Source of the DNA: Ranitomeya imitator
Taxonomy: Eukaryota
Direction of reading: 5' to 3'
Length of the DNA: 64,000 nt
Assembly: GCF_032444005.1 (NCBI RefSeq)
Contig: NC_091290.1
Coordinates: 32,860,001 to 32,924,000 of the forward strand
Part shown: one piece after another, positions 10,090 to 64,000 of the stretch
How the letters are laid out: each line of letters starts with the position of its first letter
Numbering within the stretch: position 1 is the first letter of the stretch
Position numbers and translations under genes: made by a program
The notes under the pieces: generated by a model
Databases searched by the model: none
What the model saw: only the letters and a program-made list of their open reading frames with translations
What the model was told of the DNA's origin: nothing

Positions 10090-10934
10090 CCTCCATCCTC
10101 TACTAATGCTACCTATCCTGGGCTCTTTGCGGTAATAATGCCCAACGTCCCGTGCCCCTTTCGGTAAGAATGTTTCCAATCCTGGGTCCCCTCCTGGTAT
10201 ATTGTCCCCCAAGCTTGGCAACCTTCCTAATATGTCCCCATCCTGCAACCCTTCCTGTATAAAATCCCCCATTCTGGGCCACTCCCTGGTATAAAGTTCT
10301 CCATCCAAAGCCCCTTCCTGGTATAATATCCCTCATCCCAGGCCCCTTCCTGCATAATATCCCCCATCCTAGGCCCCTTCCTGGCATAATATCCCCCATC
10401 CTAGGCCCCTTCCTGGCATAATATCCCTCATCCTAGGCCCCTTCCTGGCATAATATCCCTCATCCTAGGCCCCTTCCTGGCATAATATCCCTCATCCTAG
10501 GTCCCTTCCTGGCATAATATCCCTCATCCTAGGCCCCTTCCTGCATAATATCCCCCATCCTAGGCCCCTTCCTGGCATAATATCCCCCATCCTAGGCCCC
10601 TTCCTGGCATAATATCCCTCATCCTAGGCCCCTTACTGGCATAATATCCCTCATCCTAGGCCCCTTCCTGGCATAATATCCCTCATCCTAGGCCCCTTCC
10701 TGGCATAATATCCCTCATCCCAGGCCCCTTCCTGCATAATATCCCCCATCCTAGGCCCCTTCCTGGCATAATATCCCCCATCCTAGGCCCCTTCCTGGCA
10801 TAATATCCCTCATCCTAGGCCCCTTCCTGGCATAATATCCCTCATCCCAGGCCCCTTCCTGCATAATATCCCCCATCCTAGGCCCCTTCCTGGCATAATA
10901 TCCCCCATCCTAGGCCCCTTCCTGGCATAATATC
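10090..10934. repeat. 32 bp minisatellite in DPP3 intron 1
   Basis: ATATCCC(C/T)CATCCTAGGCCCCTTCCTGGCATA; about 19 clean copies from ~10320 plus degenerate copies to the left. Confidence 0.95.
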
Positions 10935-11445
10935 CAGCAAAACGAGGCAGAGCTTCTTACCTGCCAAGGCCTCTAAACAAATGCACTATCAGGATGCAGT
11001 GGACCCATGTGGTTAAGATGGAGACAGCACAGGTGCAGCATAACCGATGAGGCAGCCACTCTCAACCTACCAAACTAATGGAGGGGGTGGCTGCTTGGCA
11101 CATTGCTGCACATAAAAGACTTGTATGTGGCGCTGTTCACACAATGGAGATGCACAGCATCCAGGCAGGCCTAGTAGTGACACCCTTCTATTAGATCAGG
11201 CGGGCTGACCAGCGCTATCCAAATGCACCCCATGTGCACAGACACCACAGTTTACAAGACAAAAATGGGCCCAACTGCATCCCGAAAAAAAGTGCAAAAA
11301 ACACAAAAAAATATAAAAAAAAATTTTGTGAGGTATTAGTTTATACTTTGGCCAAAATACGCAAGCTCGTAACCCGCGACAAGGGTCCTCACGCTTACGA
11401 GTCCTAATTCTAAACAGCAAGAGCACAAGAAGAGATCTCTGAATC
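10935..11445 (-). mobile_element. Single copy of the ~530 nt non-coding repeat also found at 61858-63061
   Basis: Shares long near-identical blocks (e.g. CAAACTAATGGAGGGGGTGGCTGCTTGGCACA, GGAGATGCACAGCATCCAGGC) with the 62 kb copies. Confidence 0.85.
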
Positions 11446-60354: not shown

Positions 60355-61857
60355 TATGTTGAGTCATTCGCAGGTACTACACAAAGGAGAATTCTAAAAA
60401 GCTTCAACTACAAAGATCATGCCAGAAACATAATTAGTACACCTCTTCAGAAACATTAAGTCCATCTTAATAAAAAAAAAATATGCTGTATGAAATGTGA
60501 GGTCAATTTGACATCAGAAGGTAGACCTCTGAGCGGTATTTAATGTGTCATCTTGGAAAATCTGCCCATCAACACACAGATGTCAGAAGAGTTAGATGAT
60601 TCAGGCAAGTCTGTAATGAAATCCGAGGAATCAAAGATACAGGGACTATCGGGAATTATAATATACCATTGGTTATTTTGGGTATTTATTGTTTGGGGGT
60701 CATCTAATATGGTTTGATATGTCTATAACTGGCTTATGCGTTACCTAAAATGGCTTGATATGTCTGTTTTGTACTTATGTGTCAGCATGGATTTCAACAT
60801 CAATCTAAATTTGTTCTGTTGTGATTATGACCATATTTGAAGATCTCGTTACCCATCGCTTGACCGTTGCAATTAATATTATTTATATTGATTATAAGAG
60901 AGATACGATAGTTGGCCTACTTTAATGTGACCGTACACATTAGACTAATGTCGGTTGAGCTGACATCGATTGAATAGCCGACACTCATATCTATGGGGGC
61001 ATCGGTCAACTGATCGTGGGTGTAGATGTCTACCGAGTATGTCTGATTTTGGACTGCCAATTGCTTCATTCTCCCAGAGATGATTTGCCAACAGAGCTGT
61101 CTATCGGCGGCTTTCTCATAGAGAACACAGAGGTTCTCGGCCGAGCAAGTGTTCCTGTGTATGGGAGAGACGGCCAAGATGGCTGTTGGCCAACATATAG
61201 TATTTTCGTCACGCACTTACTGTATACACTTTATTTTCTTTTTGAGTGTTTACTTTTTAAGTGTTTGCAGTTGAGTTGATCCCGATATCCTATCGGACTG
61301 TGCCGGTTCTCCTTATATACAGGTATTTTATTATAGACTGTGATATGAAAAAGAAAATTGCCCCCAAAATTGTATTTAACACAAAAAATGATTTAAACAA
61401 AGATAATCTTCTGATCACACTTTCACTTTTCAAGAGTTGTCCATTTTTGATAACACCCTAAACTATTCTGGAAGGTTCGGCAATCAGCTGTTATCAGGAC
61501 TGGTACATATTTGGTGCATTATCTTATTTTATCCATAGTATTTAAAATAGATATTTCTCCTATGAAATCTAATATCTACAGTCAGGGTCAGAATGGGGAG
61601 TCTGGGGCCCACAGTGGGAATTGACCCTGGGGACCCACCCTACAGCTATATGCAAATATCTGTTAGCCATTATCCTCGATACAGTGGAGCGTCGACTGTA
61701 AAACACAGGCGTCTCCTGCACATCTATTGTGCGCCACCATAACTGGGATGTACAATTACGGTAGTTTGCAGTAAAGGTCTTCTTGATGAAAACAATTTAT
61801 CACCGATTCATAGGTTAGGTAACATAACTTATTGATCTGTGGAATCCGACCAATGGA

Positions 61858-63061
61858 GCAAAAGCACAAAGAGAGGATTCAGAGATCCTCCAAAAATTAG
61901 AAAAAAACAGCAGCAAAACACGGCAGAGGTTCTTACCTGCCTAGGCCCCCAAACAAATGCACTAACAGGATGCAGTGGAACCATGTGGTAAAATAGAAAC
62001 ACAGGTGCAGCATAACCGATGACGCAGCCACTCACCAGCTACCAAACTAATGGAGGGGGTGGCTGCTTGGCACATAGCTGCACATAAAAACTTGTATGTG
62101 GTGCTGTTCACACAATGGAGATGCACAGCATCCAGGCAAGCCTAGTAGTGACACCCTTCTATTAGATCAGGCGGGCCTGCCCAGCGCTATCCAAATGCAC
62201 CCCATGTGCACAGACACCACAGTTTACAAGCAGAAAATGGGCCCAACTGCACCCCGAAAAAAAGTGCAAAAAACACATAAAAAAAATAAATAAATAACCC
62301 ACGTCAAGGGTCCTCACGCTTATGAGTCCTATCTCTAAACAGCAAAAGCACAAAAAGAGGATTCAGAGATCCTCCAAAAATTAGAAAAATATGGATAGCG
62401 CTGGGCAGGCCCGCCTGATCTAATAGAAGGGTGTGCATCTCCATTGTGTGAACAGCGCCGCATCCTGTTAGTGCATTTGTTTGGAGGCCTAGGCAGGTAA
62501 GAACCTCTGCCGTGTTTTGCTGCTGTTTTTTCTAATTTTTGGAGGATCTCTGAATCCTCTTTTTGTGCTTTTGCTGTTTAGAGATAGGACTCATAAGCGT
62601 GAGGACCCTTGACGTGGGTTATGAGCTTGTGTATTTTGGCCAGAATATAAACCAATACCTCACATAATATATATTTTTTTTTTATGTGTTTTTTGCACTT
62701 TTTTTCGGGGTGCAGTTGGGCCCATTTTCTGCTTGTAAACTGTGGTGTCTGTGCACATGGGGTGCATTTGGATAGCGCTGGGCAGGCCCGCCTGATCTAA
62801 TAGAAGGGTGTCACTACTAGGCCTGCCTGGATGCTGTGCATCTCCATTGTGTGAACAGCGCCACATACAAGTTTTTATGTGCAGCTATGTGCCAAGCAGC
62901 CACCCCCTCCATTAGTTTGGTAGCTGGTGAGTGGCTGCGTCATCGGTTATGCTGCACCTGTGTTTCTATTTTACCACATGGGTCCACTGCATCCTGTTAG
63001 TGCATTTGTTTGGAGGCCTAGGCAGGTAAGAACCTCTGCCGTGTTTTGCTGCTGTTTTTTC
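61858..63061. mobile_element. Tandem-plus-inverted array of a ~530 nt non-coding monomer (Penelope-like architecture)
   Basis: Arm 1 is 61858-62389 and arm 2 (inverted) is 62392-63060; period 529 in arm 2; flanked by GAATCCGACCA(A/T)TGGA. Confidence 0.8.
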
Positions 63062-63346
63062 GAATCCGACCATTGGAAAAATGGGGAACTTTTATCCTTG
63101 GCAGGGAACTTTTATCCCCATTTTAAAATGAAGTGGCAGATGGGATGTGTGACTGCAGCTCCATTCATCCTCTTTGGAGGCTTCCAAAAAAGCCAAGTGC
63201 AGCCATTTAGGGAATGAATGGATCAGTGGTCGAGTCGTACATACTGCTCCATATTAAGGGGGATAAAAGTTGCACATTCTGCAGATCGATGCAGGTCCCA
63301 GCAGTCGGACCCTCACCAATCAATAACTTATTATCATTTATCCTTT

Positions 63347-63540
63347 GGCCATGTTCACACGTTCAGTATTTGGTCAGTATTTTACATCAGTATTTGTAAG
63401 CTAAAACCAGGAGTGGAACAATCGGAGGAAAAGTATAATAGAAACACGTCACCACTTCTGCATTTTTCACCCACTCCTGGTTTTGGCTTACAAATACTGA
63501 TGTAAAATACTGACCAAAAACTGATTGTGTGAACATGGCC
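63347..63540. mobile_element. PIF/Harbinger-type palindromic MITE
   Basis: GGCCATGTTCACAC...GTGTGAACATGGCC; flanks TTT/TTA (TWA-type TSD with one change). Confidence 0.75.
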
Positions 63541-63759
63541 TTAGGATAGGCGATTACTTGTTTTCACCATAGAATCCCTGTAAGTGCATAGTTGCTACTG
63601 TGTAATAGTCATAGGAGAGGGAAGGGTTAAATGTCCAAGCATTTAATCTCTGTTGGAAATCAAGAATCTTCCCCTTATTGATATCAGAGAGAACAAGTGA
63701 CCTCCAAACACAACACAATCCTCTATACCAAGACCAATAATACCTCATAAAAGGACTAG

Positions 63760-64000
63760 GTCACATATTACCACCACATAGTGACCGAAAAATACCACAT
63801 ACAAAGGACAAATACAGTCACACAATCATCCCCAGATCACATATTACCACCACATAGTGACCGAATAATACCACATAAAAGGGACAAATACAGTCATACC
63901 ATCACCAGATCACATATTACCACTACATAGTGACCAAATAATACCACATACCATGCTCCTCCTCCTCCACATACCATGCTCCTCCTCCTCCACATACCAT
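63760..64000. repeat. Tandem repeats at the window edge
   Basis: ~77 bp CACATATTACCACCACATAGTGACC... units, then CCACATACCATGCTCCTCCTCCT units. Confidence 0.75.

Follow-up and report, generated by a model that had tools for sequence, protein, structure and literature searches.

Animal retrozymes have been found only through hammerhead searches. For those of axolotl and mussel, circle ligation with RtcB is described (PMC7229834). Traits general to Penelope-like elements, among which non-autonomous MRC1-type elements are included, are incomplete tandem copies, a neighbouring copy in inverted orientation and a tail on one side (PMC8557442). The reverse transcriptase (RT) of the anole element Poseidon is reported to initiate at two adjacent internal sites that define the genomic tail, with both target strands cut and extended, while in vitro hammerhead cleavage is dispensable for insertion and unprocessed RNA is the main substrate (PMC11167929). 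In the ribozymes of hepatitis delta virus (HDV) and CPEB3 a G1-U pair is conserved and changes of G1 usually lower activity; L3 of CPEB3 reads U20-U21-C22-A23-C24-G25-U26, and its P1.1 consists of one G-C and one U-U pair (bioRxiv 10.1101/2022.09.22.508989, PMC9901934, PMC8233481). A search of the full-text literature, with subscription journals, Repbase and Dfam outside its range, returned no HDV-type ribozyme in an element that is tandem or mobilised by Penelope, although supplements of the retrozyme preprint may carry the present family under another label.

The window, the whole stretch of 64,000 nucleotides from Ranitomeya imitator that we analysed, holds an insert for which the original prediction gave a two-arm inverted array of an ORF-less monomer with periods of 484 and 529. 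We found tail-out arms of a 529-nt unit (unit coordinates, mono, run from 1 at window position 62532 to 529 at 63060) and a longest ATG ORF of 79 aa. The insert is without the RT and GIY-YIG endonuclease ORF of autonomous Penelope-like elements and has the retrozyme organisation of non-coding tandem units and long target duplications with no LTR, PBS or PPT. Arm 1 (61858-62389, minus strand, 1.1 units) extends from an inner end at 62389 (mono 525) to an outer 3' end at 61857/8 (mono 44), which lies in the distal initiation cluster described below, 15 nt before the predicted cut. Its unit (61902-62384, period 484) contains one extra T and lacks the 46 nt of mono 92-137, the deletion previously sized at about 45 bp. 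Arm 2 (62460-63061, plus strand, period 529) is a partial unit plus one full unit with its outer 3' end in the proximal initiation cluster (T6-C). Including the inner (5') piece at 62390-62459 (plus strand), the order is mono 238-280, 304-335, 458-529, the full unit at 62532-63060 and the single base C63061. The inversion joint is at 62389/62392, and deletions of mono 281-303 and 336-457 lie just after it, in agreement with an inversion at ~62390 followed by two short deletions. The two outer ends, at mono 44 and 529/530, are ~44 nt apart, within the ~50 nt first estimated.

The insert is flanked by 16-mers at 61842-61857 (plus strand, one substitution relative to the host-repeat form) and 63062-63077 (plus strand) that differ from each other by one base, and both flanks are part of an older repeat. 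A second GAATCC-type 16-mer was present in 0 of 24 paralogs of this host repeat (compared by eye, and paralogs rather than the orthologous site), and 22 of the 24 have, after the 16-mer, a different, degenerate 16-nt segment that is absent at the window locus. Because the paralogs have the 16-mer once, the 16-bp repeat is a true target duplication, as originally proposed. The target itself lies within a dispersed, MITE-like repeat with inverted segments (about 61760-61857 and 63062-63550). Tandem repeats of 76 bp and 23 bp at the end of the window (63758-64000) have no relation to the insert.

Processing of the RNA had been left unexplained for lack of a canonical ribozyme. The absence of a hammerhead was upheld, since neither CYGANGA..GAAA nor CTGANGA occurred on either strand of five subfamily units and Rfam reported no hammerhead there, but the wider claim was not, as a predicted HDV/CPEB3-type fold is present at 62590-62663 (plus strand). 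Lying just downstream of the fixed ends, and directly downstream of the distal cluster, this fold is a candidate for the processing step, and from its model the unit is predicted to carry a self-cutting RNA of the hepatitis delta/CPEB3 type rather than a hammerhead. An antisense CCGATGA was rejected as a hammerhead core as it is not conserved across subfamilies. The fold is a nested double pseudoknot in HDV order (P1-P2-P3-L3-P3'-P1'-P1.1-P4-J4/2-P2'), with, all on the plus strand, P1 at 62590-62596/62619-62625, P2 at 62599-62605/62656,62658-62663, P3 at 62606-62608/62616-62618, L3 (UUGACGU) at 62609-62615, P1.1 as G62611-C62626, P4 at 62631-62637/62642-62648 together with U62628-A62651, and J4/2 reading C-C-A-A from C62652, the candidate catalytic C. 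An invariant UAGGA (62585-62589, plus strand), whose AG is a possible splice acceptor, directly precedes the predicted cleavage site at 62589/62590. Arm 1 retains only the 5' half of the fold (62294-62326, minus strand; scoring 31 bits where the intact copy scores 102) and is predicted to be dead because the end of the P1 3' strand, P4, J4/2 and the P2 3' strand are deleted.

Across 16 distinct copies, 95.7% of cells were paired (P1 99%, P2 94%, P3 100%, P4 92%), and five pairs had changed on both sides, three in P1 and one each in P2 and P4. The pairing or covariation score was reached by 0 of 500 shuffles and the count of two-sided pairs by 39 of 500, a control inflated by the relatedness of the 16 sequences, and slid controls paired at 32-45%. 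P3 and P1.1 are without covariation support because they never vary. Positions equivalent to U20 and G25 are present in L3, and the C at the catalytic position of J4/2 is followed by N-A-A, with this C and both A in all 16 rows and either C or U at the position between them. P1.1 is an invariant G-C pair (16 of 16), reversed relative to CPEB3 and followed by U-U. At the first P1 pair, 15 rows have C-G and one has U-G, not the purine-pyrimidine G-U, and since the fold fails this one conserved feature its activity is only a prediction. An A-C wobble one position upstream of that pair would require an 8-bp P1, and an upstream GG could, by eye, extend P1 and sequester the P1.1 strand. Among five subfamily representatives, identity was 82% in the ribozyme and 64% in the rest of the unit. 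A descriptor, written with prior knowledge of the motif, matched four of these five, missing the young G subfamily (top P2 pair broken, U to G); in the 64-kb window it hit the two intact copies alone, none of the 50 GIY-YIG loci contained a match, and one shuffle in 1000 did.

Downstream of the fold, the unit has a long self-paired body (approximately 62690-63010, plus strand). Folding of 62590-63060 gave z = -6.1, with an equally good fold in 0 of 100 shuffles; the five representatives folded as circles gave z of -2.3 to -6.9 (15 shuffles each) and were no more stable than as linear molecules. A hairpin at 63021-63040 (plus strand), 30-35 nt before the proximal end cluster, displays the invariant 5' splice-site-like CAGGTAAG (63023-63030), found in 283 of 283 extracted units. 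Together with acceptor-like AG sites (62578-62587), CAGGTAAG flanks both initiation sites in the manner of a retained Penelope intron.

The insert belongs to a large, young family of non-coding mobile repeats of about 500 bases. The 5.96-Gb genome contains many near-identical copies of the unit, mostly in head-to-tail arrays, which form at least five abundant subfamilies with units of 484-535 nt. Two non-overlapping conserved-core patterns located at least 1,674 motif copies (274 + 1400; reversed controls, 0), a lower bound because the main B form and some C forms were excluded. A second independent copy in the window, of subfamily B (10935-11434, minus strand, 91% identical), has an intact fold at 11328-11401 with a compensatory P1 change. 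It is older, abuts a 32-bp minisatellite (10249-10935), and no duplication was found around it. The young G subfamily (L245-L247, L223-L228), with the U-to-G change in the top P2 pair, forms arrays of 6-18 units. Contigs of sequencing runs under five organism labels contain relatives at 80-99% identity, and in some of them the match is confined to the ribozyme stretch 62585-62666, with both flanks unlike; therefore more distant subfamilies exist. No splice joint was seen among the listed matches in contigs of runs presumed to be RNA. A long ORF beside one copy was discarded as a family partner: it is the long open gag-pol frame of an unrelated Gypsy-type LTR element (L241:1-4800) that lies directly after the ribozyme and was inserted after the copy.

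We tabulated ends and duplications genome-wide, as the original prediction had proposed, for 104 insertions with both ends visible, counting identical flanks once and dropping 13 more that were cut by the fetched stretch. Loci were chosen as the best matches to the full unit, which biases the set toward young, greater-than-unit copies, and end positions are BLAST edges with an uncertainty of a few bases at T runs. Target duplications of at least 10 bp flanked 75 insertions, 65 of these being 13-18 bp, and 67 of the 104 were tail-out inversions like the window copy. Most 3' ends (154 of 171) lay a short way upstream of the predicted cut in two clusters separated by ~50 nt, 79 at -25 to +2 and 75 at -76 to -37 relative to it, while only 3 of 37 5' ends lay in these two intervals. 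Ten 3' ends were beyond +2, only one of them duplication-flanked, and most of those near the cut stopped 4-15 nt short of it, not at it. One end of each cluster was present in 49 of the 67 inversions and in 44 of the 50 with a duplication of 12 bp or more. Inspection of 40 loci by eye revealed no poly(A) or repeat tail, no T-rich target preference and no target consensus. Pol III termination at the T6 tract was rejected in view of longer T runs upstream in the unit. Duplications of 13-18 bp and 5' inversions are also made by L1, which counts for mobilisation by an L1- or RTE-type machinery. By analogy, tail-out geometry, the end clusters and 13-18 bp duplications without poly(A) read as the two-site initiation signature of Penelope-like elements, whose combination of incomplete tandem units, a neighbouring inverted copy and a one-end tail recurs in this family.

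Local Penelope-like GIY-YIG loci with frames of 800-930 aa were also arranged tail-out: of nine end pairs tested, three had duplications of 13-19 bp and tails of about 65-105 nt, and the other six showed no duplication, several since the boundaries were not element ends. The genome has several Penelope-like families (L149-L163) whose open frames measure 750-930 aa and in which some copies form mirrored pairs with 99% identity; hammerhead-like cores are visible by eye in these families and in several of the GIY-YIG loci. The partner search covered 50 GIY-YIG loci of 3742 first-look candidates and recovered no sequence or fold in common with the unit, whether by BLAST, by profile (lowest E 2.3) or by covariance model (lowest E 3.7). 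In this small sample the monomer also had no similarity to the terminal regions of the loci, so that no sign of its being the pLTR or UTR of an autonomous Penelope family was seen there.

Divergence within and between arrays was 0.0037 and 0.0143 in subfamily A, 0.0012 and 0.0137 in G, and 0.0114 and 0.0257 in C. The older subfamily D (0.0128 and 0.0145) has accumulated single-unit changes without being homogenised, so later gene conversion is weak. In 45 A arrays we found 12 fixed variants that were private relative to the sampled arrays, eight of them across both arms and five at CpG. A private CpG transition was fixed over 19 of 19 pieces and both arms in L105, and other private variants were fixed over 7/7 and 8/8 (L108) and, in a G array, 7/7 (L225). 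Because a change from one genomic unit is fixed over many units and both arms, a one-unit intermediate is needed. Among 26 inverted A arrays there were 111 single-unit variants and just one variant common to part of both arms. Partly shared variants were missing from the long arrays L105, L107, L245 and L246, and there were four in seven duplicated-block arrays; in L045, variants were common to alternating units. Of 283 extracted units, a count into which loci that overlap enter more than once, 279 had a seamless junction at the predicted cut. These patterns make a monomer template likely, with a circle as the simplest one-unit intermediate.

One insertion is present in at least seven duplicated blocks (L035, L036, L040, L041, L042, L044 and L050) with 2-6 units each, and hence unit number can change after insertion. 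These blocks also suit a reading that we regard as unlikely, in which the Penelope enzyme copies the same element from a linear multimer left partly uncut, the role of the ribozyme is limited to making the 3' end or freeing the 5' end, and long homogeneous arrays result from young parents and later unequal exchange. Distal ends that stop just before the predicted cut, with the single duplication-flanked end beyond it, would agree with such a template, the atypical C-G first pair could slow cutting, and Poseidon mainly uses unprocessed RNA in vitro (PMC11167929). The CpG-type change of L105, however, requires passage through one unit, variants of single units hardly ever recur in mirrored form in the other arm (1 vs 111), the four long arrays, in contrast to the duplicated blocks, are free of partly shared variants, and the ends mostly fall short of the cut instead of at it.

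Decidedly unlikely is that the pseudoknot is real but does not cleave, serving instead to bind a protein or to position initiation, perhaps as an HDV-type ribozyme that is dead, while circles or multimers arise otherwise, for example via the splice-site-like motifs. The invariant C-G at +1, the swapped P1.1, the prolific subfamily with a broken top P2 pair and the invariance of CAGGTAAG would all fit such an element. Rfam, HDV-type models included, gave no ribozyme match at E up to 10 for the insert and four other subfamily loci, which points the same way. (MicroRNA matches on these loci were below threshold and palindrome-driven, and were rejected.) Genome patterns located no subfamily with conventional pairs: a pyrimidine opposite +1 gave 13 matches (control, 1), decayed copies or chance with no compensating subfamily, and a CPEB3-type C-G P1.1 gave one match against four in the control, nothing beyond chance. 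Against a non-cleaving role, the invariant residues are those of the HDV active site (U20, C24, G25, C-N-A-A of J4/2 and the A-U at the top of P2), no spliced, intron-less unit was found among the fetched loci, and back-splicing would delete both initiation sites.

Mobilisation as a SINE-like element by L1 or RTE with ordinary twin priming is highly improbable, even though HDV-like ribozymes are described at LINE and SINE 5' ends (PMC6765202) and the inner end of window arm 1 (525) meets the outer end of arm 2 (529), because the 40 loci inspected by eye showed neither a poly(A) or repeat tail nor a T-rich target preference, the start of the second arm is fixed and is met by the inner end of the first in only 4 of 18 inversions, window copy included, although twin priming would prime the second arm where the first stops, and the ribozyme lies inside tandem units, not at a 5' end.

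From the insertion structure, end clusters, covarying fold and array homogeneity we infer an enzyme, a cleavage and a circle, and find it reasonably probable that this is a tandem retroelement of ~500 nt whose predicted HDV/CPEB3-type ribozyme releases monomers that become circles, a Penelope-like protein with RT and GIY-YIG domains then copying them. The original proposal of a non-autonomous retroelement with Penelope-type insertion and a circular or multimeric template is supported by the ends and duplications mapped across the genome and by the homogeneity within arrays. Arrays would be transcribed by read-through on the plus strand of the unit, a polarity suggested by which end is fixed, and the ribozyme would cut at UAGGA|C once per unit, as predicted from the fold. 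A host RtcB-type ligase may close the monomer to a circle, by analogy with the retrozymes of PMC7229834. A Penelope protein would then nick both target strands about 14-15 nt apart, a spacing taken from the duplications, and start cDNA at two internal sites, ~5-15 and ~55-65 nt before the cut, as a rule using one for each strand. Each cDNA would represent 0.2 to 10 turns, and joining of the two 5' ends would give the tail-out mirrored arrays that are observed. In the window copy, the arm from the distal site probably lost half its ribozyme by a skip across the pseudoknot.

Whether a vertebrate genome thereby holds thousands of copies of a circular-RNA retroelement, with an active non-standard HDV/CPEB3-type ribozyme (C-G pair, reversed P1.1) and rolling-circle Penelope reverse transcription from two fixed sites, is in our view evenly balanced. 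If so, a delta-type ribozyme would for the first time underlie a class of retrozymes, the host would encode a circle similar to a minimal deltavirus-like RNA, and CPEB3-like ribozymes could be seeded into vertebrate genes from a mobile source. Ribozyme classes would then appear as interchangeable modules in such elements, and since a prolific family with an HDV-type fold is missed by Rfam, a whole unseen class is implied. The family also supplies, from a vertebrate, a naturally occurring variant of the HDV type that has an atypical active-site pair and is apparently under selection, and the G subfamily, with its broken top P2 pair, is a natural test of the activity level needed. The circle-plus-Penelope mechanism, long a proposal, is directly testable with an existing in vitro system, because the copies record the transposition step as two fixed starts, one per strand, and private mutations over many turns.

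Among described systems, animal non-LTR retrozymes (PMC7229834; bioRxiv 10.64898/2026.07.22.740005) are, as presented in these sources, likewise ORF-less, below 50% GC and built of tandem units of a few hundred bases, with one ribozyme motif per unit, long duplications and a self-paired fold, and Penelope mobilisation with a circle template has been proposed for them. They are defined and searched by a type I hammerhead, whereas the present family has an HDV-type fold and no hammerhead core, and circles and cleavage are reported for some of them (PMC7229834), while here both are predicted. The Penelope-like elements, including Poseidon (PAc), likewise form incomplete tandems with a neighbouring 5'-truncated copy in inverted orientation, and have a tail confined to one end, a pair of initiation sites and retained intron-like signals (PMC11167929; PMC8557442). 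They differ in their RT/GIY-YIG ORF and a tail of 30-40 nt, compared with no ORF and a tail of about 45-55 nt here, and their terminal repeats are described with hammerheads in reviews, while the present unit has no sequence match to the 50 local GIY-YIG loci.

With regard to the ribozyme, the fold resembles those of CPEB3 and HDV in the order of P1, P2, P3, P1.1 and P4, a 7-bp P1 and a 3-bp P3 (bioRxiv 10.1101/2022.09.22.508989, PMC9901934, PMC8233481), and that of CPEB3 also in a 7-nt L3 with one base different, a one-pair P1.1 plus U-U, and C-N-A-A in J4/2. It departs from them in a C-G instead of a G-U pair at the cleavage site, the reversed P1.1 pair and one bulged A in P2, and CPEB3 is a single intron copy, whereas the present fold, of predicted activity, is multicopy in a mobile tandem unit. 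The HDV-like ribozymes of R2, RTE, Baggins, L1Tc and derived SINEs, as described in PMC6765202, similarly place an HDV-type fold in a retroelement for release from a longer transcript. There the ribozyme occurs once, at the 5' end, with variable sequence upstream, whereas here the motif is in every unit, the upstream sequence is conserved and copies end just upstream of the motif.
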